A DNA stretch of 61,423 nt, filler included, from Jimgerdemannia flammicorona (taxonomy: Eukaryota): NCBI GenBank assembly GCA_003990765.1. It is 3 parts of 3 records of this genome, joined end to end, with 100 filler letters (N's around TTAATTAATTAA, not from the genome) between each part and the next. Parts side by side here need not be neighbours in the genome. Positions count along the whole stretch, not along the records: positions 1 to 20,411 come from RBNJ01001690.1; 2 more parts are not named here. The stretch is one strand, 5' to 3'. How positions within the stretch are numbered: the first letter of the stretch is position 1; each line of letters begins with the position of its first letter. The notes under the pieces are model-generated. The model saw only the letters and a program-made list of their open reading frames with translations. It did not search any database and was not told the DNA's origin. The position numbers were made by a program, and so were the translations under genes. This document shows, piece by piece, positions 116 through 61,189 of this stretch.

Positions 116-192
<77 letters not shown>
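78..192 (+). mobile_element. Extreme 3' end + poly(A) tail of the L1/Tx1-like LINE (5'-truncated copy)
   Basis: tattcatagactggtaataaagatggagtccaagtgactat followed by a long poly(A) is nearly identical to the 3' terminus of the full-length LINE at ~40880-40921. No TSD seen. Confidence 0.85.
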
Positions 193-479: not shown

Positions 480-1550
480 CTAATATTTGGAATATATTGT
501 CAACTAAGCCATAGCTCTCTTACTTCTTATAAATATCTATAGTCTAGTACCTCTCTATTTTGTGGAAACCCAATGAAACATTCTAAATATATTTAGTAAA
601 GCTTATTGAATTGGACAAATCTCAAGCTACTATCAGATTGATCACCTCCTGGAAGATATAGTTAGCCACTACCATGATATAGATATTACTAAAATGTCTC
701 AACACCAGAAACTCATCACTCACAAACACTAAGAACTCTTTTATAAGTATAGTATCTTTATTTCCCATCTCTGAGTTACTACCACTAAAATGGTTATTAC
801 TCTATCCTATAGCCAAATTGACAATATGATACAAGAACTCAACTATAAGTATATTGAGTATACCCAAACTACAGATAACTCCTTTCTATACCCTGATGAC
901 TTTATACTGCAAATGTCTCAAGTTGGATATACTATGAAAGATATTATAATCTAGTTTGATAATAATGAAGCAGAAGATAATGATCCCTCTGATATTGATA
1001 TGACCTCTAGTCAAGGATTCCTGCCAACTCTGATTACTTCATCAATCTTGCCAATGAACTTATAATAATTTATAACTATCTATAAGATCTATTGGAATAA
1101 TAACTCCTGGTATAAGTACTAACCTATATTTATACCTGATTACTTCAACTATAATGAAGAGACTAGAGAATATAACTTATATCTCTAGATAGTCCTTAAG
1201 ATCAAACCAATAACCCCACCTTCCAAGTATAAATAAAATGAACCATAGCTACCAGCATAATTCAACTCTATAACTTATAGTGCTATAATCTACCAAAAGT
1301 ATGCTAATAGCAAATCTGATGAAAGTGAAGATAATATATTCCTTCTCCACTCACTAATACCCTATCTAGTATATGAGATAGATAATACCATTCTGTTGGA
1401 TAGTGACATAGTTCTAACCTACTACTATATAAATGAACAAAGAGATATAATTCAAGAACTACTCTTCCTAGATGATTATTTCATCAGAGATAATATCATC
1501 AATAGTAATCTTATTGAAGAATATTCAGATAATATCTAAATCTATAGATA
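480..1550 (+). pseudogene. Decayed accessory ORF of LTR-retrotransposon remnant E (homolog of the A/C/D accessory ORF)
   Basis: Frame-1 translation through stops reads INIYSLVPLYFVETQ*NILNIFSKAY*IGQISSYYQIDHLLE...ELFYKYSIFISHL*VTTTKMVITLSYSQID...YPDDFI. These blocks align without gaps to the accessory ORFs of A, C and D. Boundaries are uncertain. Confidence 0.55.
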
Positions 1551-3516: not shown

Positions 3517-4338
3517 TGTAATAACTCTCACTTCTATCTCTCTCTTATCCTTAGGATAATTAGGGAAGTGGACTATTACTTAGGGACTTAGTACACAATG
3601 TGTACTAAGAAGCCTTCAGTTTGAGGAAGTGCTTGCTTATAAGTAGTTATAGTGGCAGTACCTTATCTTTCAAAGGTCTTTTTCTGGTTTGCCTTCTGTT
3701 TCAAAGGTCTTTCTCTTGTGCCCTATTTTGAGGGTCTTGTTCTTTGCTGTGCACAGAATGAATTCACCTTAGAATTCAGGTTCAATGGATTTACTTAAGT
3801 CTTTGGGAATTTATATACCGGTCTCAGTTCTGGCAGAAGTTAGCTAGGCTTCTGGAGTTTAGTCAGAAATACTAGAGTCACTTAGATGTCATTACTAAGA
3901 CTCAGGGAAATGTGTGTGTATGGGGGGGGACTTGATTCTTATATCAAGGACTGAACTAAAACTGCTTTATTTCAGATAGAAACTGGAGGGTATTTATACA
4001 AGTTGGTCCACGATTTCTGACTAAGTATGAGTGACTAATTTGGTAACTATAATGAGGTTTGTGATTGCGACCTTTGTCAGGTGGTTTTTGGTAAAGAATA
4101 TCTTTATGATCAGGACCTCAATTACTAGGCAATGATCAGCAGCTGTGGCAACTATTGCTGTAGCACAAGTTGTTAGGGATAAGCTGAATATTGTTTTCTG
4201 CATTGTTTGTTTGCATCGTTTGTTTGTTCATCACTCATTATTCATATGCCATGCTCAATCGTATGATGACATCATCACTGGATCATGTGATCATTTGTCT
4301 TGTCATGTCCCATCTGTTCGCTCATTCATTCTATTACA
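3517..4338 (-). repeat. 3' LTR of element A
   Basis: Direct repeat of 11882-12702 with TGTAATA...TATTACA termini. Minus-strand TATAAATACCC at 3988-3998 followed by AATAAA. Confidence 0.95.
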
Positions 4339-4352
4339 TCCTTCCCCCCTTA
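4339..4352 (-). other. Polypurine tract of element A
   Basis: Minus strand reads AAGGGGGAAGGA immediately before the 3' LTR TGTAATAG. Confidence 0.85.
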
Positions 4353-5177
4353 GAAATCAATGTCCTTGTTGATTGAGAAATTGAGAACCAGGGGAGAGAA
4401 AGGTGGGGAATCCTCCTCAGGGTTATTACCATCTTCTTCAGGGGCAGGGGGGGTGGTTACTGGTGGCTTGCTGTCCAGGATGGAGAAGTCAATTAGGTCT
4501 GCAAATGGTTCTTGCATTGGGATAGGTGCTGGTGTAGGGGTTCTCCATCTGATGTGGTTGGGGCCATCCAAGTAGGGTTCTTGGTCTTCATGCCTGGAAA
4601 TATCCATTCTGATAGATGGTCCTTCAAAGAGGTCAGAGAGGCCTTGGAGCCATTGGTCAGGGTTGTCATTCAGGAGGGGGCTCTAGTGAGGCTCGATGTT
4701 AGTAGACTTGAGGGCAATCCAGGAGTTAGCTTCTTGGGTGACCTTGACTTCCAGGGCATCAACCTCAGGGAAAGAGAGGTTCTGGAAGTCCTTCAGTTGT
4801 ATGTAGTTGAGGTTGGAGATCATGAAGAGTGCATGGTGCATGATTTGATGGATCTTCTTGGCAAGTCTTTGCTCATACCTGTCTAGGTGAGTCTAGTCAG
4901 AGACCTGGTCTGTGGGTAGGCCATTTGTATGTTGGAGAAGCTGGTGATCAATTTCAAATTCGTGCCAGATTTCTAGGTGGCTGGTAGCAAGGTAGGCCCT
5001 TTTGATAAGTTCATAGCAGTCAAGGACATACTGTCCTAGGTCTGGGCTGGTGAGGTTAAGGGCCTCTGAGTGGCGGTTCCTTCCTTGGATAACAACCTGG
5101 ATGTGTCCAAAGAGGCAGTCAACCTGGCTTAGGAGGGGCTGGCTATGGTGGACAGTTTGGCAGCAGGTGGCAGGCAT
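4350..5177 (-). pseudogene. Accessory ORF (env-position, unknown function, ~275 aa) of element A
   Basis: MPATCCQTV...LAKKIHQIM...LNDNPDQWLQGLSDLFEGPSI...FADLIDFS...LVLNFSINKDIDF in a single frame with only two TAG stops (4893-4895, 4683-4685). TATAAATA lies ~65 nt upstream (5242-5249). Confidence 0.8.
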
Positions 5178-5849
5178 TCTTGTTTTGTCTTTTCTTTGTG
5201 AGGAGAGGGGGATGAGAGTTGTGGGGTGTTCTTGCCTTGGGTATTTATACTTATTCATCTGTCTGATGTGACCTTCCCTTGGTCACACTTTCTGACAAAA
5301 TGCATGACCTGTTGCTATAAGCAGGGCATGTGCTGGTCACATGAGAAAATCCTGATTTCAAAGATATTGTCACTTATAATTGTGGTTACACAGGGTTAAC
5401 AGGTCTTGGTCCACTTTTTTTTTGTCTGGTAGGCACATTTGCAAGGACTGGCCATCCTTGTCTAGGGCAAGGGCTCTCATTGTTGTGGCTGGGTGTTTGA
5501 ACCTCTTGGAAATAGACTTTCTTATAATCTGAGGCAATTCCTAGTAACAATATCTGTCATGTAGATGGACTTAGACTGGTTTCGACATTGTTGGCTTTCC
5601 TAAGTTTCACATGAAGCATCCATCATCATCCAGCAGAGATGACACAGATGGCATGAAATGGAGTTGTTCAAATGTATTTTGCTGTACTGTACTAGATTGT
5701 TCTTTTACTTGGGTATCTTCTTATTGGTTATCCATAGTGTTCCTTTTTCTCACAATGTTTGGTATTATATATTTCCAGATAAAAATATGTGGTATCCTTC
5801 TGCTCGCTGTGTGCTCCTATACTTAGAGCTGTAGTTCCTTCCTTGGCTG

Positions 5850-8800
5850 GGGGGTGAGTGTTTCCATGTAGTCCTGGAGGGCTTTACATGCATTCTTCAG
5901 GACTTCTTCTTTTTTCCAGGTGGTATCATGGGTGGGATAACCCTTCTACTTGATCAGGAAAAAATACTTGACTGTTTTGGGATATTTGTGGACCTTGTGG
6001 GCAAGTACTTCCTTAATTTCGAATTCCTCATGATCATTGATCCTAATTGGGGGTGGTGGTGGAACTGTATGCTTAGGGAATGGGTTCTCATGGTAGTCCA
6101 CCAATTGACTGATATGGAATACTGGGTGTACTCGGATATTGTGAGGCAGTTGCAACTTATAGTTGACTTCACTGATTTTTTCCATGATCTTGTATGGTCT
6201 AATTCTTCTAGCACAGAGTTTCTTGGCTGGTTGTTGTGCCAGGGTATCTGAGTGGAGGTGGTCTGTTCTAAGCATGACCAAGTCACCAATATTGTAGGAG
6301 ACTTCTCTTTGCTTCAAGTTCATATACTTGGTCTGGTAGTCTTGTGCTTCTATGAGAGCATCTCTTGTCATTTGTGTAAGGTCAGAAATGGTCTCAGCCA
6401 GATCTTGGGCTGCTGGGACTGCTGATTTTGTAGTAGTACTTGGGGTCCTTGGGTGTTGACCATAGTTCAGAAAGAATAGAGTCTTCTTTGTGGAGGTTTG
6501 CTGACTGTTGTTGTAGGTAAACTCAGCATGAGCTAGGTACTTGTCCCAATCATTTTGCTTGTAACAGTAGAAGATGCTAAGCATCTGTTTGAGAGTCCTA
6601 TTGGTTTGCTCAGTTTGACCATCAGTCTGAGGGTGGTAGGCAGTAGAGAACTTCAGCTTGGTTCCATAGAAGGAGAAAAATGCCTTCCAGAAGTTGCTTG
6701 TAAACTTGGTATCTCAGTCAGATACAATAGTGCTAGGCATGCCATGTAGTCTGAATACTTGATTGAGGAAAATCTCAGCAATCTCTGGTGCTGTAGCGGT
6801 GGTCTTGGTGGATACAAAATGGGCTTATTTACTTAGGCAGTCCACAAATACCACGATGGCATCCCATCCTGCCTTGGTCTTGGGGAGTTGGACAATGAAG
6901 TCCATTGCAATCTGGTCCCAATTGTGACTCAGGATAGGCAAGGGTTGCAGGAGTTCTGCTGGTAGCTTGTTACCACTTTTGAACTTTTGGCATATCTTGC
7001 ATGAGGCCACAAAGTCTTTAATATCTTTGGTCATCTTTGGTCAGTAAAATTCTCTTGAGAGGAGGTTATAGGTCTTTTCAAAACCAAAGTATCCTGCTGT
7101 AGGAGTATCATGGAGTTCCTGCATGATTTTGAGTCACAGAGGGTATAACCACTCTGTCATGGTCCCGGTAGATAAGTCCATCATGATAGGTGAATCTCTT
7201 GGCCATTTGCCTCATAGGTTCTGGAACCTTAGCCTCTGGGTCTTGGCAGAATTGAAGGAAATTCATCAGAGAGCTATCTTACTGGTAGCCATCCTTGATC
7301 ATTTGGGTAAGGTCTCCAATTACTTTGACCATGAAGACAAGTTTGTCTTCCATATACTTGGAGAAACCATCAGCCACACAGTTGGTTTTGCCTGGGATAT
7401 ACTTGATTTCCATATCAAAGTTGGCAATGATTTCCATCCAGCAGGCTTGTCTGTGGGTCAGCATAGGCTGTGTGTAAATATACTACAGTGCATGGTGATC
7501 AGTATAGGCTACAAATGGCTATCCTAGGAGGAAGTGGCACTATTCCTGGAGTGCAGTGACAATAGTCAGGAGTTCCTTCTCATGGGTGGTATACTGGGTC
7601 TCAGCTGGCTTGAGCTTTTGGTAAAGATAGGCCACTGAGTAGTCTTCTTGACTGAGTACTGCTCCAATAGCAATGTCAGAGACATCTGTGGTCAGCATGA
7701 ATGGTCTGGTAGGGTCAGGTGCAATTAGCACTGGGGCCTTGGTAAGGAGTCTCTTGAGATGGTCCATAGTCAGAGTGCATTCAGGGGTCCATTCAGCTTT
7801 GATGTTCACTCCTTTGCAGGCCAGACTGGTTAATAGAGCTGCAATAGCAGAGTATCCTTGAATAAACCTTCAGTAATAACCAGCAATACCCAGAAAGCAC
7901 TGGAGTAGCTTGAGGGTAGTAGGGATAGGGATATCCTTAAGGGCTGATACCTTTCGGGGGTCTACATTGATACCTTCAGCAGAGATGATGTGTCCTAGAT
8001 ATTCAATCTGATCTTGGTAGAACTTGCATTTGCTCATCTTGGCATAGAGTTGGTGTTCTCACAGGAGGGTCAGTACTTGTCTGAGATGGGTGTAGTGTAG
8101 CTCTACTGTCTCGCTGTAGATTAGTATATCATCAATATATATAAGGACACAGATGTTGAGGAGGGGTCCAAAGATGTCATTCATCAGATACTGGAATGTT
8201 GCTGGTGTATTGATCAATCCAAAAGGCATGACTTGGAACTGGTAGTGTCCAAACCGTGTTCGGAAAGCTGTCTTCTCAATGTCCTTCTCATCAATGAGAA
8301 TCTGGTGATAGCCATTTCACAAATCCAGTAGAGAAAAGGTCTTGGCCTTGAAGATTTGGTGTAGCAACTCATCAATTCTGGGCAAGGCATACTGGTTCTT
8401 GATAGTGATCTTGTTAAGGGCTCTGTAGTCAACACACATTCACAGAGAGCTATTCCTTTTCTTGACAAATAGAATGGGGGCTCCAAATGGAGAGCAGCTG
8501 GGTTCAAGATATTCTTGGGCCAGTAGTTTGGTCAATTAATCCTTGAGGGTCTTGAGCTCAGGTTGAGCCAGTTGGTAGATACTCTTGTATAGGGGTTCAG
8601 ATCCTGGAATAAGATCAATTCCCTGTTGGATTTGGCACTTGGGTGGAAGTCCTTGAGGATCTTGGAATATGTCTTGGAATTCTTCAAACAGTTCTTGAGC
8701 TTCTGTTGGAATTGGGCTACTTGTAGCTTCAGTGACTTCTTGTACTGTACAGATGAAGTAGGTATTTCCCTTTTTCCAAGAGAGTCTCTTCATTTGAATA

Positions 8801-9210
8801 GCAGAGATGATTTCGATTTCTTGGTAGTTGGTATCTTCCTGGGGTATCAGGGTGATCTTTCTACCTTCATGGGTCAGGTTAACCTCATTGGTTCTCCAGT
8901 TGATGTCTGGGTTGTACTGGGTCAACCAGGCTTTTCCTAAGATGATATCTTGTCCTGGGAGATCTACAATGCTGAAGTCCAACTTCTCTTGATATTTGCC
9001 AATCTTGAGCAAAAGGTCTTCACAGATCTTGGTCAATGGTACAGTCTTTCCATCACCAAAGGTAACACTTCTTTTCTCAGTAGTTGGTCTGCTTCGGGCT
9101 CAAATCCTCTTGGCAGTCTTGGTGCTGATATAGTTTCCAGTAGCACCATTATCAAGCAAGATATTGACATTTTGTCTGTGGACTTGGCCTGTGAACTTAA
9201 TACAACTGTC
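5850..9210 (-). pseudogene. pol: pol of element A: aspartic protease, RT, RNase H, integrase, C-terminal chromodomain
   Basis: PR LLDNGATGNYIS (~9110-9170); RT with IYIDDILI (~8120-8145); RH LTTDVSDIAIGAVL...HEKELL; IN H..H..CKIC and IAMDFIVQLP, with PSD GQTE-type core; chromodomain EFEIKEVLAHK...FLIK*KGYPTHDTTW (~5850-6030). Interrupted by stops and frameshifts. Confidence 0.93.
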
Positions 9211-9529
9211 CTCCTTCTTGATGGTATTGAGCTCTTCATCCTCATTGTTGTCCCAATTGCTGTCAGTCTCCTCGAAGTCAGTTTCTCCCCATCCTTCACA
9301 AGGAGGGTTGTCTTGTTTGGGTTCCTCAGTCTGTTGAGCTTGGCACTTCTCAGATTGAATTTTGAAAACTTTGGAGAGATATGTATGGCATTCACCAATA
9401 TGTTCCATGCAGTACATTCAAATAGAATGAGAGCATCATCCACATAGTGCATAACCATCTGCAATTCTCTTATACCAGTTTTCATCATCTTCCTTCATAG
9501 TAGTGACCTTTTGACTGGGAGGTTTGTTG

Positions 9530-9940
9530 GTAGATCCAAACTCTTTCTTGCCACAATCTGTCTGGGAGAGTTCAGGGACTTCTTCAATGGTGAGATCTTG
9601 ATGGATTTCTTCAATGATTGCTTGAGCAATTCTTTGGCCTGTTTTGACTTCAAATGATGTATCTCCAAAATTTCGCAAGATGATATGGATTTCACCAGTA
9701 AATCCTTGGTCAACTACTCCTCCGCCTAGCCCAATGTTGAACTCTTTAGCTAGGCTGCTTCACTCAGCAAGGTGGATGTATGTACCTCTGAGAGCTTGCA
9801 TTGCAATTCCTGTTCACATTGTAGCATTGGTACTTGGTGGGATGGTGAGGTCTTGGCTACTGTAGAGATCATATCCAGCATCAGTTAGGTGGGCCTTAGT
9901 GGGGATGGTAGCCTTGTACCATATCTTCTGTACTTTGATG
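9530..9940 (-). pseudogene. dut: dUTPase domain of element A (between NC zinc knuckle and protease)
   Basis: All five trimeric dUTPase motifs are recognisable: DAGYDL, (R)SSLA, GGVVDQGFTGEI, GQRIAQ and TD(R)GKKEFGST. Confidence 0.92.
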
Positions 9941-10029
9941 ACATTCTTGGAGTTCTTCTTTTCTGGACCTTCTCCAATAATAGTAATGTTCTGGTTACTG
10001 GGTTCACCTGTTCTGTTTCTCTTCTCAGG

Positions 10030-10992
10030 GCATTTGACTGAGATGTGCCCTGCCTTCTTGCCAATAAAGCACAATCCCTTTTCATGGAGCTGCCTCTTTT
10101 CATCCTCAGTGGGGGGTCTGGGTCCTCTGGGGTTTTGCTGGTTTCTTTGATCATTCTGTTGATCATATCTTTGATCATTTCTCCTGGTAGGATTTCTTCT
10201 ATCTTGGTTATCCTTCTTGTATTCTTGATTTCATAGGGCTTGTGCAGCAAGGATCTCACAGGCTCTTCTTTGTACTTGGGCAAAACACCATGAGTAGTGG
10301 AGATATCCTTGGGGAAGACCTTGTTCCTTAATCTTCTGGGTAAGCCAGTCTGGTAGGGCTGTAAAGAGATGGTTGGCTCTGGTACCATTGATGGCCAAAT
10401 TGTTCTCCTGATAGGTAAGTCCAACAGTTTTGAGGTAGGCATCCATTCTGGTAGCAAAGGTCTCTAGATCCTCTTTGCTATTCTTGTGGAACTTCATCTG
10501 GGACAGTTTGTTCCAAGTTTCTTATATGTAGACTGCATTTTGGAATTTGATCAGTAGCAAGGCCTTGAGTCCTGGGCCTGCTTCATAGTTATCCCAACCT
10601 GGTCTATTGTTGCCAGGTACTTGTCTATTGACTTGAGGGCAGGCTTCCTAGGTTACTGGGTGTTGTTCCAAGGTTCGCCAGAATTCGGCTGCTGTTCCAG
10701 TGAAGAATGTGGCTACTGTTTCTACTTATGCTGCTGATGTGGCAAACAGCTGTTGAAGGGTGCTGTTCTGGTTATTGGTGAGTATTCCTATAGGTACTCA
10801 GTTGTTATCCATTGGTTTGCTCAGTAGCCTGTATCAACTACATTGATGAAGTTTTCAATATCACTGTTTTTTCCACTGAATATTGGGATTCACAAGGTTT
10901 TGGTTGGTTTGTTCTGTTCAGCAATCTGTCCTACTATCCCTGCTAGTGCTGCTAGCTGAGTAGTCAGTACTGCAATATTGACATCTACCATT
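10030..10992 (-). pseudogene. gag: gag of element A
   Basis: Capsid-like IPIFSGKNSDIENFI and EDLETFATRMDAYL segments, plus a degenerate knuckle CFI(G)KKAGHISVKC at ~10030-10072. Confidence 0.75.
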
Positions 10993-11048
10993 GTATTGAT
11001 TATTGGTGGTGGGCCTTTTGGGGTAGATTCTCCTGAAGATTGTTCTGC

Positions 11049-11780
11049 TTAGTGGGGTTGTGGTGCTGTATGACTTGGAGTTACTTGATTCCCGGATATT
11101 ATGTCAAAGAGTCCTGTGAGAGAGGGTAAACCAAACCTCTGTATAGGTAGCTGAGTTGGTTCTGGGGTCTGATCTTCTTGACCTGTGGTCCCTTGGTAAA
11201 TTCCTAGGCCTGCTGTTCCTCGTTGGCTATCATCAGACTGGTAACCTGTAGAGTCTTCATCTGACTCCCTTCTCTGATGAGATAGTGCATTCTCATACTG
11301 ACTAGGTCCTTCAAAGAGAATATCAGTCTCTGGCTGGATTGATGGGCCTGCTCCTTGTTCAGCAGTAGGGGATGGGTGGTCTGCTTGCTCATTCTCATAC
11401 CTAGTTATGGCAGAGGTGTAGTATATAACTAGCCTGTAGTAGAGGGAGGTCTTGGTTGGGGTATGATGATATCTGTCAGAGGCAATCCACTCGGCAGCTG
11501 CTTCTCTTGCAGCAGGGGGTGTGATATAATCTAGAAAATCCTGGGTAACTGTAGCAGTAGATTCTGGGGTCCTAGTAGTTCCAATGTGTCCTCGGAGAAG
11601 TTCATAGAACCTATGGTGGCTAACAATATTCCTAAGTCCTGGGTGGTATGTCCTAAAGGCCTGGTATAGATCCTTATAAGCCTGGTCAATTACAAGCTGG
11701 TGGGTTCTTGGGTCTGTGGTTTCCTGGTACCACCTGGTCCTAATGGCAAGGGCTTCTCTGGCTCTGGTTTGAGGATTCAC
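11049..11780 (-). CDS. Unknown ORF 5' of gag in element A (separate ORF or long gag N-terminal extension)
   Basis: 243 uninterrupted codons just downstream of the PBS, in frame with the following gag-like sequence across a single TAA. No recognisable domain; the start codon is uncertain. Confidence 0.5.
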   Translation of the reverse strand: MNPQTRAREALAIRTRWYQETTDPRTHQLVIDQAYKDLYQAFRTYHPGLRNIVSHHRFYELLRGHIGTTRTPESTATVTQDFLDYITPPAAREAAAEWIASDRYHHTPTKTSLYYRLVIYYTSAITRYENEQADHPSPTAEQGAGPSIQPETDILFEGPSQYENALSHQRRESDEDSTGYQSDDSQRGTAGLGIYQGTTGQEDQTPEPTQLPIQRFGLPSLTGLFDIISGNQVTPSHTAPQPH

Positions 11781-11867
11781 AGTTGTTTCTGAGGGTTACT
11801 CCTGTCCAAGGTTGGTCTTGTTCCAACTTCAGGAGTGTGTTCTTTGGTGCCTTCTTGGCAGGTAATT

Positions 11868-11878
11868 TGCTGCTACCA
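11868..11878 (-). other. Primer-binding site of element A (tRNA-iMet-like)
   Basis: TGGTAGCAGC begins 3 nt (ACT) after the 5' LTR. The tRNA assignment is tentative. Confidence 0.65.
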
Positions 11879-11881
11879 AGT

Positions 11882-12702
11882 TGTAATAACTCTCACTTCT
11901 ATCCCTCTCTTATCCTTAGGATAATTAGGGAAGTAGACTATTACTTAGAGACTTAGTACACAATGTGTACCAAGAAGCCTTCAGTTTGAGGAAGCACTCG
12001 CTTATAAGTAGTTATAGTGGCAGTACCTTATCTTTCAAAGATCTTTTTCTGGTTTGCCTTCTGTTTCAAAGGTCTTTCTCTTGTGCCCTATTTCGAGGGT
12101 CTTGTTCTTTGCTGTGTACAGACTGAATTCACCTTGGAATTCAGGTTCAATGGGTTTACTTAAGTCTTTGGGAATTTATATACTGGTCTCAGTTCTGGCA
12201 GAAGTTAGCTAGGCTTCTGGAGTTTAGTCAGAAACACTAGAGTCACTTAGATGTCATTACTAAAACTCAGGGGAATGTATGTGTATGAGGGGGGACTTGA
12301 TTCTTGTATCAAGAACTGAACTAAAACTGCTTTATTTTGGATAGAAACTGGGGGGTATTTATACAAGTTGGTCTGCAATTTCTGACTAAGTATGAGTGAC
12401 TAATTTGGTAACTATAATGAGGTTTGTGATCATGACCTTTGTCAGGTGGTTTTTGGTAAAGAATATCTTTGTGATCAGGACCTTAATTACTAGGCAATGA
12501 TCAGCAGCTGTGGCAACTGTTGCTGTGGCACCAGTTGTCAGGGATAAGCTAAATATCATTTTCCACATTGTTCGTTTGCATTGTTCATTTGTTCGTCACT
12601 CATTATTCATATGCTGTGCTCGATTGTATGATGACATCATCCCAGGTCACATGATCATTCATCTTGTTATATCTCATCTGTTCGCTTATTCATTCTATTA
12701 CA
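11882..12702 (-). repeat. 5' LTR of element A
   Basis: Direct repeat of 3517-4338, differing mostly by transitions. Confidence 0.95.
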
Positions 12703-15382: not shown

Positions 15383-15623
15383 GGTAATGGTGACCCCAGA
15401 ATGATGACATCAGCATAGAAGACAGCCTTTCCTTACAAGCCACCAGATTGGAGTACAAGAAGATTATATGATATACAAAATGAGCAATGATGACCAACTG
15501 TGAGTCATTATGACCACAGTATAAGCATCTTGAGGAATTTAAAGAAGGATCAAGGAACTGTAGTAGCAGTAACCAATAAGACCCACCAATCCCAAAATAG
15601 CTTAAAGACTTACTACAAACAAA

Positions 15624-16817
15624 ATGTCTGCTGCCTGCCAAACCTTAAGGTCAAGAAACCACTAAGGCATCTCAGTCAAAGAAAGAATGTTCCAAGACAT
15701 CAGAAGAGCTATGAGGACCTGCTCAAGAAGGACTCCTAGTATCAACCTGGGTACTAGTAACCCTTATCATTATATCCTCTACCACTATGAAATAGAAACA
15801 AGAATCACCATTACTACTAAATGCCTCCAAATATAGCAGAAGTATGAAATAGGAAACCTTCTCTACCAGGAGTTCCTACAGGCCAACACTCAAGAGCTAC
15901 AAGATGCTACTCTCATAGATATATATGAAACAAGAACAGCTAAGAAGATCTTTTTTTTTTTTTTTTTTTTTTTTTTATTTTTTTATTTTTATAGTTACTT
16001 GGACTCTTTCTTTATTACACCCATCTATCTCATATAAGTACATTGCACCCACCCCCTATCCGATCCCCCTAGGGGCCCCCCCCCTCCCTACCCCTACTTG
16101 ATGAAAGACCACTCTGTCTAATACAATCTCCACCCTTCCACCACTCTGCTCACAGATCCTTGCTACCAAACCTTGATGTCATCTCCCTGAAGGACTTCAA
16201 CCTATCTACCATCCAGTCATCAGATCTCCCAATAACTCCTCCCACCTTAAAACCTTCTCCTGCAGTCTTATCTGCTATCTCTCCTCAAATATAAAAAGCC
16301 AATATTCCACCAACAGCTAAGAAGATCCATCAGATCTTCAGGCATACACTATGGTCAATCCCTAACTTGGAGTATGTTAGAGTCTCAGACTTCAGAGATC
16401 TGTCATCTTACTGTATCAATGTACTAGAAGCCAGGGTGGCTACAGAAGCCCAGTCCACTATCACTCTCAATAGTAATGAAGTAGAAGACTTCTAGTACTC
16501 CATCCTCCAAGACAACCCAGACCAATTCCTGCAAGGATTGATCTCAGTATTCCAAGGCCCAAGCATCCAGGTTAGACCTTCCCAAGACCCCACATTTGTC
16601 TCCTATTTTGTGGAAGAGAACCTCATAGACTGGGGAGCTCTAGATCTCTTTGTTCCTGCCATTACTGAATGTGATGATGTCATCAGCAATGACATCATCC
16701 CACATGACCTATGCAATCTTGATAAAACATTCACAGACCTCATCTCCTTTAAAGATATGTATCCTGATCTCTGATAACAAGGATGAAGTCTCCATGGTCT
16801 TGAACATTCTACTCTAA
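15624..16817 (+). pseudogene. LTR-embedded accessory ORF of C', disrupted by a LINE insertion
   Basis: Same ORF as 54829-55647, split at AKKI by the 15951-16311 insertion. Confidence 0.75.
15951..16311 (-). mobile_element. 5'-truncated L1/Tx1-like LINE insertion with poly(A) and 16-bp TSD
   Basis: A poly(T) run then tatagttacttggactc (reverse complement of the family 3' end). Flanked by AACAGCTAAGAAGATC at 15935-15950 and 16312-16327; the other C LTRs have this site only once. Confidence 0.93.
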
Positions 16818-16834
16818 GTCTCTTGTATACTAGA

Positions 16835-16985
16835 TAATACCAGCACTAATATTCTGAGGTGACGCAGAATTGTTCTAGCACTGGTATTTTGATGTAATAC
16901 TAAATAATACCAGTACCAGTATTCTGATGTGATACTGAATTATACTAGCATTCTGAACATATACAACCATCAGTACTGACTCTGG
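16835..16985 (+). repeat. Degenerate ~35-bp tandem repeats in U3 of family-C LTR (also 55665-55815, 60730-60880)
   Basis: About four units like taataccagcacYRgtattYtgaKgtRaYac lie upstream of the LTR TATA/AATAAA. Confidence 0.7.
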
Positions 16986-19236
16986 AACTTAGTAGTTTTA
17001 GTTATTGGAATTTATATTTAGCTTTATATCTTAGCAACTATGAATTATATTTTGTAAAAATACCTCTCTTATTTCCTCTGAAATAAAGTCAGTTCTATCC
17101 AGTTTACTTATATACTTCCTTGCAAGCAATCTAAGAGATAATAAGACAGTTTAAAGATAAGAAGTTTGAGGACTATAAGACCTTGAGAAGGCACTCCAAT
17201 AAGAACTTGCTTATAACAAACTTGAGTTAGTCTAAGAGATATACCTTAAAGAGAATCTGATATATTTGAAGGACTCAGCAACTACTACATGACAACTTGG
17301 TGCCCATTGGCTGATGATTCAAGACAAATCCCTCACTTTTAAGCTGAAAAACGAACAACCCCCATAATAACTACTCTGACTACAAGAGTCACTCCTGCAA
17401 GAATTCAAGATAAGATAGAAATGCATCTCCCCACATTCTATGGATATACTACTGAAGAGTCAATCCTGACCTTCATTGAAGACTTTGAACAATTCACTGC
17501 CATATGAGCCCTTGGTGTGGATGCACAATTGGCCCTTCTACCAGTTAGTCTCAGAGGATCTGCTAGAGACAAGTTCAATGCAGCCACCATTGCTGATACT
17601 GGTGTAGCCAAATTTGCCAACATAAAGGTCTTCTTCAGAACAATATACTATACTGAAGAGATCAAGCAAGCTCTCAAGGATTAACTCAATACTATCTACC
17701 AGGGACTTAGTGAAGATCTCAACTCATTCTATACCCAAATCTGCTACCAGATTGTCTTGGCTGGCTATAATGACCATCTCAAGGAACAAATAGCAGATTC
17801 AACCTTCCTCAAAGAAGTTCACTCTGAAATTGCCCTAGCAATCCAGTCTACCCTAGCTGCACTGACCCTTGATCAGAAAGTAGTCTTTGCACAGAGATAT
17901 TGGACTGCCAAACACTCTACTGAATACTCAATGGAGAAAATAACTGGCATCAAGATGGAGCCATCAAAGCCAACTAGTATTATATCCACCACAGTTGTAA
18001 ACAGACAACTAACCCCACCTACCCCCAAGACAGCCAAAGCTGACCCAGTGGAAGAACTTGCCAAGCAGTTCACTGAGATAACTGCACACCTTGGTGATAT
18101 TGTTAGAGAAGTCTGAAGTGCCAACAGAAGACCAGTGCAGAGATTTGCAGCTGCTATAGAAGAACACAATATCATATACTTCAGATGTGGAGAAGAAGGC
18201 CACTATGCAAAGAGTTGTATGACTGAAATAAGATACAAAGCCCAACCAAGCAATGCTAGCAAAACCAGAGAACAAACCAATACAGTAGTCATCAAGGAGA
18301 TTGGTGACACTGATGATGAAGAATACTACAAGGAGCTTGAATTCTACCCTGCTACTGAAGGTACCAGAACCTGGTCCAAGCCCTATGACAAGAAGAGTAA
18401 CAGCAAGCCAGTTGGAAGACCAAAGAAGACCCCAGCTATCACTATTCAAAGCAAGATCCAATCTGAGAAGATTGATCAAGACATGGAGTTAGATGAAGCT
18501 GCTCACCAAATCATTGAAAACACTACTCTAGTCTCAGGAGAAAGTGAAAGCAAGAAGAAACAGAAGCTGTACAAGACCAAGATCCACCAGTATGATATCT
18601 ACAAGGATCTCAAGGAACAGAAGGTCAATGCTACTTTTGGACAACTAGCTGAGGTCCCTGCCTTTAGACAGCTGTTGAGAGTAGGACTTGCAACTACTGC
18701 TAAGAATCAAGAGTATAAGATTGTAGAAGCTCACAATATATAGGAAGAATCTGAGAACTCAGGTGAAGAATCTGAAGACCAGTACAAGATATCAGCCTAT
18801 ATCTCATATTAGATCGAAGACTGTATCTTTGATGCCATCATTGATACTAGTGCTAGAGGATATCTCATGAGCAAGAAGGCAATTGACTGCCTAGGTTGGG
18901 ACATTGAAGAGTCCACCAAGATGGTCTATATTACAGCAGATAGTACATGAGCTACCCCCCTTGGCAAAATCCGAGAAGTCCCCATTAACATAGGAGGAGT
19001 AGATATGATTGTTACAAGTACCACCAACTATGACATCCTCATTGGCAACCAATGGCTTCACAAGGCCAAGGCTATCATTGATCTCAATGCCCAGAAGATG
19101 CAGATCAACTATAGAGGAAGAAAGATATGAGTCTCTATCAATGTCCACAAAGGAGTTCTACCAGACATAGAGGAAGGAGATGAGGAGGACACAGAAGTCC
19201 TCATACAATTGGTGAACAAGAACAAGAATAAGACAC

Positions 19237-20410: not shown

Positions 20411-20511
20411 ANNNNNNNNNNNNNNNNNNNNNNNNNNNNNNNNNNNNNNNNNNNNTTAATTAATTAANNNNNNNNNNNNNNNNNNNNNNNNNNNNNNNNN
20501 NNNNNNNNNNN
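20411..20511. other. Assembly gap with TTAATTAATTAA spacer
   Basis: N-runs around the same linker as at 40922-41021. Confidence 0.95.
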
Positions 20512-20561
<50 letters not shown>

Positions 20562-20563
<2 letters not shown>

Positions 20564-30001: not shown

Positions 30002-30041
30002 CCTAACCCTACCCCTACCCCTACTCCTACCCCTACCCCTA
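30002..30041 (+). repeat. Telomere-like hexamer tract CCTAA(CCCTAC)n
   Basis: cctaa ccctac ccctac ccctac tcctac ccctac cccta directly abuts the LINE 3' end. Confidence 0.8.
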
Positions 30042-37172: not shown

Positions 37173-37202
37173 GGATTGATTGGGAACAAACCATATTTTA
37201 TT

Positions 37203-50219: not shown

Positions 50220-53200
50220 GGTAAGAGTAATTTCTTAACTCTCAGAGGTAGTATATTTCTCTATAAATTCTTTTTAATTCAAACTATCTGATTAAGATTT
50301 ATTCACTCTTATCTTTAGGGGTATTTATATATATTTCTGCTATACTCTAGTGATAAGATCTAGATATACTATTGGTTTGCCAGTAGCAGTATATCAGTAG
50401 AAAAGACTATACTAATAGAGTAAGGTTAGAATACTCTTGTTCTATACTACTGATAAAGAATATTGATCTCTATCTTAAAAGGTATGATATCCTTTACTAG
50501 TGGCAAGTAAATTACCTTGTTGGATTATGACTTCATCATATTACTCTTTAAAGAGAAGAAATACTGGCCAAGAGATAAGAGGATAGAATAGTGGCCAATC
50601 ATCTTCAATGATATTTTCTAACCTTTATATAGCTTGAAGGTAGACTGAAAACTAGTAGATTCTTTGTTATTCTTTTTCTTGGAATTTATCAGTTTGAGCA
50701 TCTTGAGGTACTATAGTAGTTTTGATAGCAGAGTCTTAGTGTTTTTCTTCTTCTTAAACAAGAGCTTCTGGGACTTCTTAGTTTGGTTCTCATACAATGT
50801 GATGTGATATATAACTGATGGAGTAGTGGATAGTTATAGTAGCTCTTGTAGATATTTCAACAGTAATGAGTGGTCCTTCAAAGATTTTTATAAGACTTAT
50901 TAGATAGTTTTAATAGTTGTCTTAGAGAGAGATAGTATAGAAGCCTGATAGAGTGAGTTTAGTTTGTTGACTTCCTATAGTAACATGTTTACTTCTGATA
51001 TAATTGGTAACTTTAGCTTCTACTCAATTGACTTCTTTAGTGGTGAGATAAACTATATTCCTAGTAGTAACTCTTTGTAAGTGAACTATAGCTCAGAGTA
51101 TATAGTGGAATATTTAGTAGATACATATAAAGAGCTCTCTTAATTAGCTAATTAGTGGTTAATAGTTTGGTAATAAGGTCTTTTCAGTTGTCTTCTTGGG
51201 CTTCATTGTAGAGGTAGTGTCTAATTTCATAGTTATACTAGAGAGTCATTCAGTTAGTAGTACTCTTGAGCTACTAAGTCATTATATAGCAGTAGTTGAT
51301 AAAATATCCAAGGTCTTTAGTATAGAAGTTCAGATACTCAGTAATATCAGGGTACTAGATAGTCATTTGGATGACTTCAAGAATAAGACTCTTTAGACTT
51401 GGCAAAGAAGTACTGTAGTAGAAAGTCTGATTAGAGTAGTAAGAAAGAGGCATTATATTCTTATTTGTTCTGATTCTTCTTGACATACTGGGTCTAGGTT
51501 CTTTAAATAATATAGTCTTTATTTTAACTCAGATTATCATTACTCCTTTTGGTCAGATACATATATAATCTGATAGATTGAGTGGGTCATTAGATAGTAT
51601 TATCTGATTATTATATCATAAGATTAGGATTATTATCTAATTAAGATAATCACAAGATCTGTCATTATTGCTTCTTTATTCTAGTATTATTAGTTATATA
51701 TATATATCACATCTACTTCTTGCAAAATTAGAGTCATTTTTAATGATGATAATTATATAGGATTGAGTGGTCTTAACTCTAGAGATAAGTAGAATATTAG
51801 TATATTTGTGAGGACTGGTCATTTTTATCTAGGGTGAGAGCTCTCATTATTATAGCTAGGGGTTTGAACCTCTCAGAAATGATACTTTCTATAATTTGAG
51901 ACAATTTTTAATAGTAATATCTATTATATAAATAAGCTTGAGAATAGTTTCAATAGTGTTGACTTCTTGAGTTCTAGATGAAGTATCTGTCATTCTCCAA
52001 TAGAGGTAATATAGATAAAGTAAACAGAGTTGTTCAAATGTGTTTTGCTTTTCTTAGATAGTAGAGTCTTATATAGTTGTGGTATATCTTAGTCTTGAGT
52101 AAAAGTCTATCCATAGTCTTGAGCTGGTAGGTGTGATCTGTAAATACTTAGTATATGAGATAAGGTTCTTCCCATTTTGGTTTAAGTTTAGCACTCCAGT
52201 TTCCTTTTATAATAGTATGATATACTAAGACTTATTATTTAATAATCAAGAGTTCAAGATTGACTTTGTAGTCATAGTGCTTCTTTTGTCATTCTTGTAC
52301 TTTGACAATAAATTCTCATGTCTGCTAGCATACTTTATATAACTGAGTGATCTCTTCAGTAACTCATTTTGTCAAATTTAGCTGAATTGGTTCAGTGGAG
52401 TTCTATACTTCTTAGCTATACATATATCAGATAGAAAGAGGTTTATTGAGTAGTAGTTGCCTTTGAAGTTCAAATACTAAATAAGATTGCTAGATAATAG
52501 ATATCTCAGTTAAGTTGATCTTAGATTCTACTGAGATCTTGCTTAATGGTCTGGTTTATTTGCTTAGTAAGTCTATTTACTTGAGGGTGGTAAGCTGTTA
52601 TTAGCTATAGCTTGATCTTGAAGTTACTTATAAAGGTTTTCATAGCTTTGTTGATAAATTCCTGATCTTGATCTGTAATAATTTCCTTGAGAACACTATG
52701 ATGGCTAAAAATTTTATCATACAGGATTCCAATAATTGTCTGTGCATCAGTAGTCTCAATAGTAAAGACTTTAGGCTATTTTGTCAGATGATTTTCAATG
52801 GTGAGAATATAGTATCTTTCTTGGCTAGTTACTGGAAGAGACTCAATAATATCTATTCTTAATCTTTAAAAGGCTTCAGCTGATACTGTGATCAGTATTA
52901 GAGGTGCTTTGTTACTTAGCTTTTATCAGTATCTTTAATAAATATCATATTGTTAAATGTGTATTGAAATTTTTTTTCTCATTTTGGGCCACCAGTATTG
53001 TTTTTTAATTCTTACAATAGTGGTACCAATTCCTTAATGTATATTCTGATTATAGTTTGTTATCAGGATCTTAGGTATTTCTTCTTCTCTTGAGATATAG
53101 ATATACTAATCTCCTTTTATTCTTCAAAGTTTGCCATCACTTTTCTGAAATTTTTTTAAGTTTCTTTAGATAAATAGCTTGTAGGCTAGCTGAATTCCTT

Positions 53201-54586: not shown

Positions 54587-56122
54587 TGTAACAGTGACCC
54601 CAGAATGATGACATCAGCACAGGAGATAGTCTTTCCTTGCAAGCCACCAGATCAGAGCACAAGAAGATCATATGGCATATGAGATGAGCAATGATGACTA
54701 ACTGTGAGTCATTGTGACCACAGTACAAGCATCCTGAAGAATATAAAAGAAAGATCAAGGAACTATGGTAGCAGTAACCAACAAGACCCACCAATCCCAA
54801 AATAGCTCAAAGACTTACTACAAATGAAATGCCTGCTGCCCACCAAACCTCAAGGTCAAAGAACCACCAAGGCACTTTGGTTGAAGAAAGGATATTCCAA
54901 GACATCAGAAAAGCCATGAGAACTCACTCAAGAAGGACTCCTAGTATCAACCTGGGTACTGCAGACTCTTATCACTTTATTCTCTACTGTTGTAAAATGG
55001 AAACAAGGATCACTATTGCTACTGAATGCCTCTAAATGTGGCAGGAGTATGAAATAGGAAACCTCCTCTGCCAGGAGTTCCCACAGGCCAGCCCTCAAGA
55101 GCTACAAGATACTACTCCCATAGATATATGCGAGACAAGAACAGCTAAGAAGATCTATCAGATCTTCAGGCATGTATCATAGTCGATTCCCAACTTAGAG
55201 TATATTAGAGTCTCAGACTTCAGAGACCTATCATCTCACCATATCAATACACTAGAAGCCAGAGTGGCTACAGAAGCCCAGTCCACTATCACCCTCAATA
55301 GTGATGAAGTAGAAGACTTCTGGTACCCCATTCTTCAGAACAACCCAGACCAATTCCTGTAAGGATTGATCTCAGTATTCCAAGGCCCAAGCATCCAGGT
55401 TAGACCTCTCCAAGACCTCACATTTGTCTCTTATTTTGTAGAAGAGAACCTCATAGACTAGAGAGCTCCAGATCTTGTTCCCAATTTCTCTACCGAACAT
55501 AATGACATCATTGGTGATGATATCATCCTGCATGACATTGACATATATAAAGCACACAAATCATACAATGATAAATTTGTGAATCTCATCTCCTTCAGTG
55601 ATAATGATAATGATGAAGCCCCCATGATCCTAAACTTTCTGCTCTAAGTTCTTTATTACACTAAATAATGCCAGCACCAGTATTTTGATATAACACTGGA
55701 TAATATCAATACTGGCATTCTGAGGTGACATGAAATCATTCCAGCACCAGTATTCTGATGTGATACTAAATTATACCAGCATCCTGAACCTGTACAACCA
55801 TCAGTGCTGACCCTGAAACTTAGTAGTTTTAGTTATTAGAATTTATATTTAGCTTTATATCTTAGCAACTATTGAAATATATTTTATATAAATACCCCTC
55901 TTATTTCCTCTGAAATAAAGTTAGTCAAGTTCACTTACACACACTTCCTTGCAAGCCATCTAAGAGATAACAAGATAGTTAAAGATAAGAAGTTTGAGGA
56001 CTATAAGACCTTGGGAAGGCACTTCAATAAGAACTTGCTTATAACAAACTTGAGTTAGTCTAAGAGATATATCTTGAAGAGAATCTGGTATATTTGAAGG
56101 ACTCAGCGACTACTATGTGACA
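54587..56122 (+). repeat. 5' LTR of element C
   Basis: Direct repeat of 59647-61189 and 15383-17294. Confidence 0.95.
54829..55647 (+). pseudogene. LTR-embedded accessory ORF (272 aa) in 5' LTR of C
   Basis: Single 819-nt frame with stops only at positions that are Q or W in sister copies. TATAAAAG lies ~85 nt upstream. Confidence 0.8.
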
Positions 56123-59646: not shown

Positions 59647-61189
59647 TGTAACAGTGACCCCAGAATGATGACATCAGTACAGGAGACAGCCTTTCCTTAT
59701 AAGCTACCAGATCAGAGTATAAGAAGATCATACAGCATACGAGATGAGCAATGATGACCAACTATGAGTCATTGTGACCACAGTACAAGCATCCTGAAGA
59801 ATATAAAAGAAGGATTAAGGAACTGCAATAGCAGTAACCAATAAGACTCACCAATCCCAAAATAGCTCAAAGACTTACCATAAATGAAATGCCTGCTACC
59901 TGCCAAACCTCAAGGTCAAGGAACCACCAAGGCATCTTAGTTGAAGAAAGAATATTCCAAGACATCAGAAGAGCCATGAGGACTCACTTAAGAAGGACTC
60001 CTAGTGTCAACCTGGGTACTGCAGACCCTTATCACTTTATCCTCTACTGCTGTGAAATGGAAACAAGGATCACCATTGCTACTAAATGCCTCCAAATATG
60101 GCAGGAGTACAAAATAGGAAACCTCCTCTACCAGGAGTTCCCACAGGCCAGCCCTCAAGAGCTACAAGATGCCACTTCTATAGATATATATGAGGCAAGA
60201 ATGGCTAAGAAGATCCATCAGATCTTTAGGCATATACATACCATGGTCAATCCCCAACTTAGAGTATGTTAGAGTCTCAGACTTCAGAGACCTGTCATCC
60301 TGTCATATCAATGCACTAGAAGTCAGGGTGGCTATAGAAGCCCAGTCCACTATCACTCTCAATAGTGATGAAGTAGAAGACTTCTGGCACTCCATTCTTC
60401 AGGACAACCCAGACCAATTCCTATAAGGATTGATCTCAGTATTCCAAGGCTCAAGCATCCAGATTAGACATCCCCAAGACCCCACATTTGTCCCTTATTT
60501 TATAGAAGAGAACCTCATAGACTAGAGAGCTCCAGATCTTGTTCCCGATTTCCCCACCAAATGTGATGACATTATTGGCAATAACATCATCCTGTATGAC
60601 ATTGATATACACGAAGCACATGAATCACATGATGATGAATTTGCAGATCTCATCTCCTTCAGTGATGATGATGATGATGATGAAGCCTCCATGATCCTGA
60701 ACTTTCTGCTCTAAGTTCTTTGTTACACTGAATAATGCCAGCACCAGTATTTTGATGTAACACTGAATAATGCCAGCACTGGCATTCTGAGGTAATGTGA
60801 AATCATTCCAGCACTGGTATTCTGATGTGACACTGAATTATATCAGCATCCTGAACCTGTACAACCATCAGTGCCAACTCTGAAACTTAGTAGTTTTAGT
60901 TATTGGAATTTATATTTAGCTTTATATCTTAGCAACCATTGAATTATATTTTGTATAAATATTCCTCTTATTTCCTCTAAAATAAAGTCAGTCAAGTTCA
61001 CTTATACACACTTCCTTGCAAGCCATCTAAGAGATAACAAGACAGTTAAAGATAAGAAGTTTGAGGACTATAAGACCTTAGGAAGGCACTCTAATAAGAA
61101 CTTGCTTATAATAAACTTGAGTTAGTCTAAGAGATACACCTTGAAGAGAATCTGGTGTATTTGAAGGACTAAGTGACCACTACATGACA
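59647..61189 (+). repeat. 3' LTR of element C (contains accessory ORF copy 59889-60714 with a small frameshifting duplication near 60235)
   Basis: Direct repeat of the 5' LTR. ORF-track fragments 59889-60272 and 60190-60426 are two frames of the same ORF. Confidence 0.95.

Follow-up and report, generated by a model that had tools for sequence, protein, structure and literature searches.

The stretch of DNA analysed here, 61,423 nucleotides (filler included) of the Jimgerdemannia flammicorona assembly GCA_003990765.1 and called the window below, carries an accessory gene whose assignment, by homology, to three Ty3/gypsy lineages, designated A, C and D, is solid. Element A was delimited by its LTR pair, TSD, PBS and PPT, and its accessory ORF lies between the chromodomain and the PPT. 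The features of element A, in positions of the window, are the following.

3517-12702, minus strand: element A, a complete Ty3/gypsy element, LTRs 92% alike, 5-bp TSD ATGGG
3517..4338, minus strand: 3′ LTR of element A, 822 nt, TG..CA
3965..4001, minus strand: core promoter and poly(A)-signal block of the A LTR, TATAAATA .. CTGAAATAAAG, homologous to 55883-55920 in the C LTR
4339..4349, minus strand: PPT of element A, directly 3′ of the accessory ORF stop codon
4350..5177, minus strand: accessory ORF of element A, 275 codons plus TAA stop, E 2.1e-78 with the HMM built from outside proteins only
5242..5249, minus strand: TATAAATA TATA box of element A, 72 nt 5′ of the ORF ATG, candidate internal promoter
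5850..11795, minus strand: gag-pol of element A, with gag region, dUTPase, protease, RT, RNase H, integrase and chromodomain
11882-12702: 5′ LTR of element A

A sequence-only reading had placed an ORF of about 275 codons between pol and the PPT of element A, and such a frame was found at 5177-4350 (276 codons including the stop). It is a coding frame, as had been claimed, but not an open one, being interrupted by two in-frame TAG codons at 4893-4895 and 4683-4685. Its own TATA box, which had been put ~65 nt upstream, is present at 5249-5242, although the distance is 72 nt. The stop codon of the ORF (4350-4352) is followed immediately by GGGGGGAAGGA and then by TGTAAT, and a spacer of ~650 nt with stops in all frames separates the ORF from pol. 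The gag-pol region of A contains several stops and frameshifts; a Pfam scan of 83 stop-free ORFs, hand-picked from 121 frames of at least 95 aa, gave matches there to dUTPase (1.8e-15), RVP_2, RT_RNaseH_2 (2.1e-26) and SH3_Tf2-1 (1.4e-19), and the chromodomain-like end of pol, at about 5850, was read from the translated sequence. A 248-codon frame at 11052-11795, with an ILFEGPS-like string, was considered as a homologue of the accessory ORF and rejected as a chance likeness (tblastn E 1.6; no HMM match at E<=10).

The ORFs of A and D lie outside the LTR, and placement inside U3 was seen in family C only, with the following features.

54587..56122, plus strand: 5′ LTR of element C, 1.53 kb, holding the accessory ORF, with a TGG-type PBS next to it
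54742..54749, plus strand: TATAAAAG TATA box of copy C1, 87 nt 5′ of the C1 ATG and ~155 nt into the LTR
54829..55647, plus strand: accessory ORF copy C1, in U3 of the 5′ LTR, 272 codons plus stop, HMM E 1.2e-94
55883..55920, plus strand: second TATA box and AATAAA block of the C LTR, 3′ of the ORF, presumed to act as promoter and terminator for the genomic RNA
59647..61189, plus strand: 3′ LTR of element C, holding copy C2, with the purine run AGGAGGAAGA just before it
59889-60711, plus strand: accessory ORF copy C2, HMM E 2.5e-41 and 4.5e-52
15385..17294, plus strand: LTR of a second, truncated family C element, containing copy C3
15624-15950 and 16316-16801, plus strand: accessory ORF copy C3, in two pieces, HMM E 3.1e-33 and 3.6e-55

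The LTRs that hold C1 and C2 are the two LTRs of one element, and the copies at 15.4, 54.6 and 59.6 kb are 83-91% alike in DNA and form one family, with a common first base (TGTAAC) in the three copies and a terminal CA. Four internal stops interrupt C1, C2 has a frameshift near 60216-60228 plus two stops, and the two pieces of C3 are split by an insert of ~360 nt. In the truncated element, gag and protease follow 3′ of the LTR up to 19236 (zf-CCHC Pfam match). Since the whole C ORF lies in U3, it is present in both LTRs.

A further copy accompanies a decayed pol in lineage D, and a possible remnant, E, was found near the start of the window.

50652..51471, minus strand: accessory ORF copy D, 3′ of decayed pol, HMM E 1.2e-9 and 2.2e-19
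54285-54049, 53752-53525 and 52667-52422, minus strand: RT, RNase H and IN, respectively, of the decayed pol beside D
571..828, plus strand: remnant E, possible very decayed fourth copy, HMM score 3.5 bits

The D ORF is heavily mutated, with 11 stops over the last 161 codons, and its nearest intact outside protein, as read by eye, is P0008. Remnant E aligns to the expected region of the profile, with a score that was matched by 5 of 500 base shuffles, and as a fourth lineage it is marginal. The homology blocks that had been quoted for A, C and D are present in the sequence; of the "four different families" claimed with them, A, C and D are solid, whereas E is marginal and C had been counted from several copies.

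A tblastn search of the window with the A frame returned 14 rows at E<=10, namely the self match, six rows from homologous copies and seven noise rows (E>=0.6). The homologous rows were C1 at 54796-55401 (7e-32), C3 (9e-22 and 2e-7), C2 (1e-15 and 2e-15) and D at 51471-51211 (0.025). An HMM built from outside proteins alone was then compared with the six-frame translation of the window, and all eight domain matches at E<=10 fell in A, C1, C2, C3 or D (E 1.2e-94 to 1.2e-9), with no match elsewhere in the window. Between A and C, identity was 35% for the ORF (204 aa), 32% (104 aa) and 37% (62 aa) for integrase and 24% for protease, and gag gave no match at E<=1. On these alignments, the ORF is at least as conserved between A and C as integrase and more so than protease, and homology between the ORFs persists in elements that cannot otherwise be aligned in their LTRs or gag.

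An exhaustive HMMER search of 1.84 billion representative proteins yielded seven matches at E<=0.001, of which six are real relatives (P0006, 342 aa; P0005, 247 aa; P0008, 200 aa; P0004; P0007; P0010) and the seventh, a mosquito ankyrin-repeat protein, is a false positive. All six come from metagenome contigs, three annotated as "hypothetical protein" and three without a name. The suggested likeness to proteins of arbuscular-mycorrhizal fungi was not borne out by this search, in which the only named match was the mosquito protein. A scan of metagenome contigs gave a single locus, L001, with an open ORF of 291 codons and the same layout as A (TATA, ORF stop, purine-run PPT, TGTAAT); an in-frame stop lies 17 codons 5′ of its conserved Met-Pro start. 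Pfam, searched at E<=10 with nine family members, returned no meaningful family (best Thioredoxin_3, 0.12, and ATG5_HBR, 0.13, in one protein each), a sequence-profile search of PDB gave a lone ankyrin protein at E 0.2, and the best ESM Atlas values for P0006 and P0005 were 0.88 and 0.86, under the lead level of 0.9. Neither Pfam, PDB nor the ESM Atlas thus yielded a relative.

The repeats had been described as heavily C-to-T mutated, and this is what was found: transitions outnumbered transversions by 57:5 and 150:5 in two LTR pairs, and CpG had an observed/expected ratio of 0.00-0.09 in A, C, D and E and of 0.27 in the repeat block at 32-40 kb, against 0.96 for a host gene. A mutation process confined to transitions has killed the copies in the window, and intact versions exist elsewhere. 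At places 4894 and 4684 most related soil-metagenome contigs carry C, not T, on the plus strand, which gives TGG (Trp) on the coding strand; the depth shares for the TGG reading were 79/82.3, 11.9/11.9, 0/2 and 19.5/23.5 at place 4894 and 50.3/50.3, 6.85/8.85, 4.73/4.73 and 16.1/18.1 at place 4684. Read against these contigs, both TAG stops of the A ORF are private to the A copy.

A selected function had been one of two proposals, and the comparison of A with L001 supported selection, with dN 0.283, dS 1.244 and dN/dS 0.228 over 260 codons against 1.22 and 1.24 in the shifted-frame controls; identities at codon positions 1, 2 and 3 were 0.72, 0.76 and 0.565. So strong an excess of transitions distorts NG86 ratios. 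Neutral decay, as measured between the two LTR ORF copies of one C element, gave a ratio of 0.47, equal to a transition-only neutral simulation (median 0.50, 2.5-97.5% range 0.33-0.93), and the 0.23 of A and L001 falls below that range, the simulation being at 10% divergence and the pair at 32%. The estimate was made on a single pair because one outside locus came with DNA. By these codon comparisons, the accessory ORF evolved under purifying selection between lineages, and its retention by selection marks it as a genuine additional gene of the elements.

The homologous unit, judged by sequence only, is a cassette of TATA box, ~50-nt leader and ORF. The distance from TATA to ATG is 72 nt in A (TATAAATA), 80 nt in L001 (TATAAAAG) and 87 nt in C (TATAAAAG), and the score of the leader alignment between C and L001 was reached by 1 of 300 shuffles. 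The cassette of A, L001 and D reaches as far as the PPT, immediately outside the 3′ LTR. In C it sits in U3, between the LTR start and a promoter/poly(A) block homologous to that of A (local alignment score 37 for the LTR core block, reached by 0 of 300 shuffles), so that each C LTR combines a TATA box with the ORF and, downstream, a poly(A) signal. A simple shift of the PPT was considered as the source of the C arrangement and rejected, the C LTR start having no significant similarity to A (score reached by 95 of 300 shuffles against the A spacer and by 26 of 300 against the A LTR). The layout is that of a stand-alone cistron, and from the order of the motifs the accessory gene is likely to have a transcript to itself, a short mRNA that would be driven by the internal TATA box and end at the LTR poly(A) signal. 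In A the TATA motif is overlapped by an upstream in-frame ATG and could therefore belong to coding sequence in that copy.

The protein was helical in both AlphaFold models, with mean pLDDT of 45.1 from an 8-row and 48.8 from a 14-row alignment (AlphaFold2); since these values are low, the term "helical domain", for ~215 residues, is a statement on secondary structure only. Foldseek against PDB with the pLDDT 48.8 model gave no match at E<=0.001, the model being too weak for this to have meaning. At pI 5.2-6.4 the N-terminal domain is not basic, and it contains no recognisable DNA-binding motif or Cys/His cluster. The tails are acidic (pI 4.05-4.14), and those of the three intact outside proteins have a net charge of -15 to -22. 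The tails of lineages A and C carry the Phe/Leu/Ile-containing motifs x-D-L-I-x-F and P-x-V-L-N-F, and in the lineage of D and P0008 the acidic tail is kept while D-L-I-x-F and V-L-N-F are missing. No transmembrane or signal-like segment was found in any of five proteins (maximum Kyte-Doolittle 19-residue mean 0.59-0.94), in agreement with the sequence-only reading. An env identity was rejected, with no hydrophobic segment and no Pfam env family in the nine proteins scanned, and the protein is predicted to be soluble and not an env.

The best explanation of these data as a whole, and the one towards which we lean, is a selected accessory cassette that encodes a separately transcribed, soluble trans-acting factor. 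In such a product the ~215-residue helical domain would do the specific binding and the disordered acidic tail would recruit a host machine. The mechanism that we prefer, tentatively and by analogy with foamy-virus Tas, is that the product may activate the LTR of its own element, with the tail as an acidic activation domain; a direct DNA-binding activator is not favoured, because the N-terminal domain is non-basic and without a DNA-binding motif. An adaptor to a host degradation or trafficking pathway seems unlikely, and a silencing suppressor rather more so. A protein that counters host genome defence (RNAi, DNA methylation, C-to-T mutation) instead of activating transcription would be advantageous in view of the severe mutation of host repeats described above, and retroviral-accessory-like regulatory roles have been suggested for plant additional ORFs in the available text of PMC7264820; yet the family has no similarity to known suppressors in Pfam or PDB, each of the five to six window copies is itself heavily mutated, so that protection is not evident here, and we regard this reading as quite improbable.

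Two further explanations were weighed. The ORF might be a module exchanged between co-resident elements, by template switching of co-packaged RNAs, and not inherited with pol. The cassette is placed on opposite sides of the PPT/LTR boundary in A and D versus C and has therefore moved at least once, the ORF (35%, E 7e-32) exceeds protease (24%) in A-C identity while gag is undetectable, and the portion of PMC5408684 available describes bdelloid rotifer LTR elements with captured ORFs common to diverse retroelement types. The A-C identity of integrase (32-37%), however, is close to that of the ORF and fits co-descent with a strongly constrained ORF, and A and C also have in common the core promoter of the LTR, the start of the PBS (CA|ACTTGGTA) and the TGTAA terminus of the LTR; exchange as the general explanation appears doubtful. 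The notion that the frame is a decaying relic, or a part of pol, without a present function of its own would agree with the stops or frameshifts in every window copy and with the LTR-pair ratio of 0.47, which is the neutral expectation. It is largely refuted, and in our view very improbable, given open frames in the six outside proteins and L001, the between-lineage dN/dS of 0.23 with excess divergence at third positions, stops in A that are private to that copy, an in-frame stop that splits the ORF of L001 from upstream sequence, and the ~650 nt with stops in all frames before the ORF in A.

Carried further, the reading as a soluble trans-acting factor would make these elements "complex" retrotransposons in the retroviral sense, with a trans-acting regulator, made from a promoter inside the element, that would turn the element on or shield it and that in C has moved, as gene, promoter and terminator, into the LTR. 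We offer this as speculation with little probability. If true, every C-type LTR, solo LTRs included, would be a dispersed and self-contained copy of a regulator gene, dead copies could feed live ones, and a ready route to host domestication would exist.

To our knowledge, most of the extra genes described in LTR retrotransposons come from plants and animals, and hardly any of them has been given a function. The foamy-virus Tas (Bel1) is encoded by a regulatory gene that lies 3′ of the structural genes, has an internal promoter and ends in an acidic C-terminal region. The accessory gene resembles it in its place 3′ of the structural genes, its TATA-type candidate promoter inside the element and the acidic C-terminus, but differs in having no sequence or fold match to solved proteins (PDB profile search; Foldseek on a low-confidence model) and in its fungus-like, not vertebrate, host. 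ORFs in or overlapping U3 of the LTR are those of MMTV sag and primate lentivirus nef, and MMTV Sag is a type II membrane glycoprotein. As in sag, the family C ORF lies wholly in U3 and hence in both LTRs; unlike Sag, the accessory protein is without a hydrophobic segment, and the A and D ORFs are outside the LTR. Literature searches found no description of the accessory ORF, and the phrase "ORF within the LTR" returned nothing.

The accessory ORF lies in bona fide LTR elements apart from gag/pol and is conserved like the elements' own proteins; on these sequence features it is an "additional ORF" (aORF) of LTR retrotransposons and genuinely protein-coding. What sets it apart is a sense-strand gene kept by selection across lineages without any remaining gag similarity, with an apparent promoter of its own and two placements, before the PPT or inside U3. 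If it is a regulator or counter-defence factor, retrovirus-style accessory functions would have arisen in fungal-type chromodomain elements, and the U3 version would make solo LTRs potential genes. For annotation, the six relatives among 1.84 billion representative proteins, all metagenomic and either "hypothetical protein" or nameless, are a warning. Among fungal extra genes, our literature search gave only the antisense brtn of the Boty-like elements of Botrytis cinerea (Zhao et al., 2011, as cited in the available parts of PMC8365987 and PMC7264820), which likewise sits as an extra gene in a Ty3/gypsy element of a fungus and has no known function; compared by description and not by sequence, brtn is antisense whereas the accessory ORF is sense. 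In the maize element Grande, gene23 is a 3′ aORF with its own promoter and a nuclear product, as far as the available text of PMC7264820 describes it. Like such plant 3′ aORFs, the accessory ORF is a conserved gene that comes in addition to pol, lies between it and the 3′ LTR and is without database relatives; by the same partial description the plant aORFs are antisense, whereas it shares the strand of gag-pol in A, C and D, and unlike them it belongs to fungal-type, dUTPase-bearing chromodomain elements and lies inside the LTR in one lineage. With the captured ORFs of bdelloid rotifers, as presented in the accessible part of PMC5408684, it has in common that the same extra ORF occurs in different LTR-element families of one genome, although in another host kingdom and with other proteins.

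The window is eukaryotic DNA rich in repeats, in which one Ty3/gypsy retrotransposon, element A, is complete. The features of element A are as follows:

3517–12702, minus strand: element A, with LTRs, target duplication, primer site and purine tract
5177–5175 (ATG) to 4352–4350 (stop), minus strand: accessory ORF of A, 275 codons, with TAG twice in frame
9439–10230, minus strand: dUTPase domain (Pfam E 1.8e-15), preceded by gag and followed by protease
11052–11795, minus strand: open frame of 248 codons, immediately following the 5′ LTR and preceding the stretch recognisable as gag, without Pfam match

The LTRs of element A are 822 nt each and 92% alike, and the target duplication is of 5 bp (ATGGG); a TGG-type primer site directly follows the 5′ LTR and the purine tract precedes the 3′ LTR. 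The gag-pol region, interrupted by several stops and frameshifts, comprises dUTPase, protease, RT, RNase H, integrase and a chromodomain-like end, and the accessory frame follows pol, which ends at ~5850, and precedes the purine tract. PF00692 is also present in several of the closest metagenome relatives of the integrase. Named integrase relatives, at 34–41%, come from fungi, plants and one alga; the host may be a soil fungus that has been little sampled. The 248-codon frame was considered as a homologue of the accessory ORF owing to the strings ILFEGPS and DLFEGPS, and was rejected as not significant (tblastn E 1.6).

Further accessory ORFs lie in element D and in family C, in the latter within the LTR (54829–55647):

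51471–50652, minus strand: accessory ORF of D, 3′ of decayed RT, RNase H and IN
54587–56122 and 59647–61189: LTR pair of element C, one internally deleted element
15385–17294: LTR of a second, truncated family C element
55658–55778, plus strand: U3 segment of the C LTR with a 35-nt unit three times in tandem, 3′ of the accessory ORF and 5′ of the LTR TATA box

The copies at 15.4, 54.6 and 59.6 kb have the same starting base and DNA 83–91% alike, and were therefore assigned to one family, C. The internally deleted element retains gag, protease and part of the integrase, while D has with A a single common DNA stretch, 247 nt at 74% identity. The ORF copy C3, in the truncated element, is split by an insert of ~360 nt that includes a long run of T (15951–16315, plus strand).

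The sequence-only reading had claimed one accessory gene common to four LTR-retrotransposon families. With A's frame as tblastn query, 14 rows were obtained at E ≤ 10, namely one self match, six rows from homologous copies, with E from 7e-32 to 0.025, and seven noise rows (E at least 0.6). To avoid circularity, an HMM was made solely from proteins outside the window; on the six-frame translation of the window it gave eight matches at E ≤ 10, all in A, C1, C2, C3 or D (A, 2.1e-78; C1, 1.2e-94; D, 1.2e-9 and 2.2e-19). On these two lines of evidence the homology among A, C and D is real. For the fourth family, remnant E (571–828), the correct part of the profile is aligned, but the score is 3.5 bits and 5/500 shuffles reach it. 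Judged by sequence similarity, the accessory ORF is thus in three solid lineages plus one marginal trace. Just upstream of the remnant, at about 118–190 (plus strand), a run of ~72 A residues reads as 24 consecutive Lys.

Outside the window, a word-index search gave one relative protein, and an exhaustive HMMER search across 1.84 billion representative proteins gave seven at E ≤ 0.001, six of them real (P0005, P0004, P0006, P0007, P0008, P0010); the seventh, a repeat-driven ankyrin protein, was discounted. Metagenome contigs from JGI or ENA are the source of all six, each of which either has no name or is labelled 'hypothetical protein'. Open counterparts are of A type (P0006, P0004, P0012), of C type (P0005, P0011, P0007) and, judged by eye, of D type (P0008). 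The single locus with DNA, L001, carries an open ORF of 291 codons with an in-frame stop 17 codons 5′ of the ATG, and it has the same order as A of stop, purine tract and TGTAAT.

Over 260 codons, A and L001 differ with dN 0.283 and dS 1.244 (ratio 0.228), the same columns shifted by one or two bases giving 1.22 and 1.24, and identity by codon position is 0.72, 0.76 and 0.565. As a caution we used the LTR pair of element C, between whose copies only neutral divergence is possible: their ratio is 0.47, with 0.50 and 1.00 in the shifted frames. A transition-only neutral simulation gave a median of 0.50 (range 0.33–0.93), so that under the mutation spectrum of this host 'neutral' is ~0.5 and not 1. 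Divergence of the C LTRs appears neutral, and the ratio between lineages falls below the simulated range; the ORF is very probably a real, selected accessory gene.

This spectrum was read from two LTR pairs, with transitions against transversions of 57:5 (3516–4344/11881–12708) and 150:5 (54588–56121/59648–61190), the bulk of the transitions being C-to-T where A or G follows. Among A, C, D and E the observed/expected CpG ratio is 0.00–0.09, as against 0.27 in the 32–40 kb repeat block and 0.96 in the F-box host gene. These patterns point to a putative strong repeat-directed C-to-T process, under which LTR divergence is unreadable as age. The stop codons of A were compared with contigs covering the stretch at no less than 80% likeness, taken from two studies with four soil-metagenome runs in all; at both stops the majority carry the base giving Trp, so the stops are private G-to-A changes on the coding strand, and they fit the window-wide transition pattern. 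Other genes and repeats are listed here:

41341–43257, plus strand: apparent host gene, intron-free, F-box and ankyrin protein, 639 codons, GC 0.60 (best named relative in Jimgerdemannia flammicorona, 32% identity)
45833–46531, minus strand: apparent host gene, frame with Promethin match
20560–24851 and 25704–30008: 4.3-kb unit in tandem, 86% identity, RVT_1 match at 28204–28683
1633–3502 against 32357–34124 and 35565–37464 (reverse): strongly GC-skewed repeat family, three places, 65–68% alike

The tandem unit, bounded by two 560-nt repeats 79% alike (19246–19809 and 31000–31561), is another retroelement, inserted where element C3 breaks off (19236). Long frames of the GC-skewed family (e.g., 35346–37169, 608 codons) had no Pfam match; an RVT_1 match of this family lies at 38459–39130. 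N runs of 44 bases stand in two pairs, 12 bases apart within each, at 20412–20511 and 40922–41021, and were taken as masked or unresolved sequence.

TATAAATA lies 72 nt 5′ of the ATG in A and TATAAAAG 80 nt upstream of the ORF in L001, the distance from TATA box to ATG being 72 nt in A, 80 nt in L001 and 87 nt in C, and the leader directly 5′ of the ATG is similar in C and L001 (score reached by 1/300 shuffles). From this conserved spacing, a separate transcript started at the internal TATA box seems somewhat favoured. In the C LTR the 35-nt tandem repeats, enhancer-like in position, are followed by a TATAAATA..CTGAAATAAAG block resembling the one at +337 in the LTR of A (0/300 shuffles reach the score). 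Given this common core block, the TGTAA terminus and the CA|ACTTGGTA junction of both, the C LTR resembles an LTR of A type that has a gene cassette apparently placed in U3; similarity tests for a relic LTR start in the C LTR gave none that was significant. Between A and C, identity is 35% in the accessory ORF, 32–37% in integrase and 24% in protease, with no match in gag, a pattern which would fit co-descent under strong constraint or module exchange, either one.

Two AlphaFold models of the protein, of low confidence (pLDDT 45 and 49), are both helical over the first ~190 residues. Conserved strings are W-H/Q-E-Y-E-I, A-K-K-x-H-Q and L-Q-D-N-P-D-Q-x-L-Q-G-L..F-E/Q-G-P. The tail is acidic (pI 4.05–4.14), with a net charge of -15 to -22 in three intact outside proteins and of -9 and -10 in two window copies with broken frames. 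Tails of lineages A and C contain the motifs D-L-I-x-F and P-x-V/I-L-N-F. No hydrophobic segment was found in the protein, and no relative in Pfam, PDB, ESM Atlas or Foldseek. Composition and position allow guesses at function: an activator of the LTR, whose acidic tail would serve for activation, is a tentative first candidate, an adaptor to a host factor is doubtful, and a counter-measure to silencing or mutation is more doubtful still. Our literature search found no description of this accessory ORF; the nearest known cases described in PMC7264820 and PMC8365987 are the antisense aORFs gene23 of Grande and brtn of Boty.
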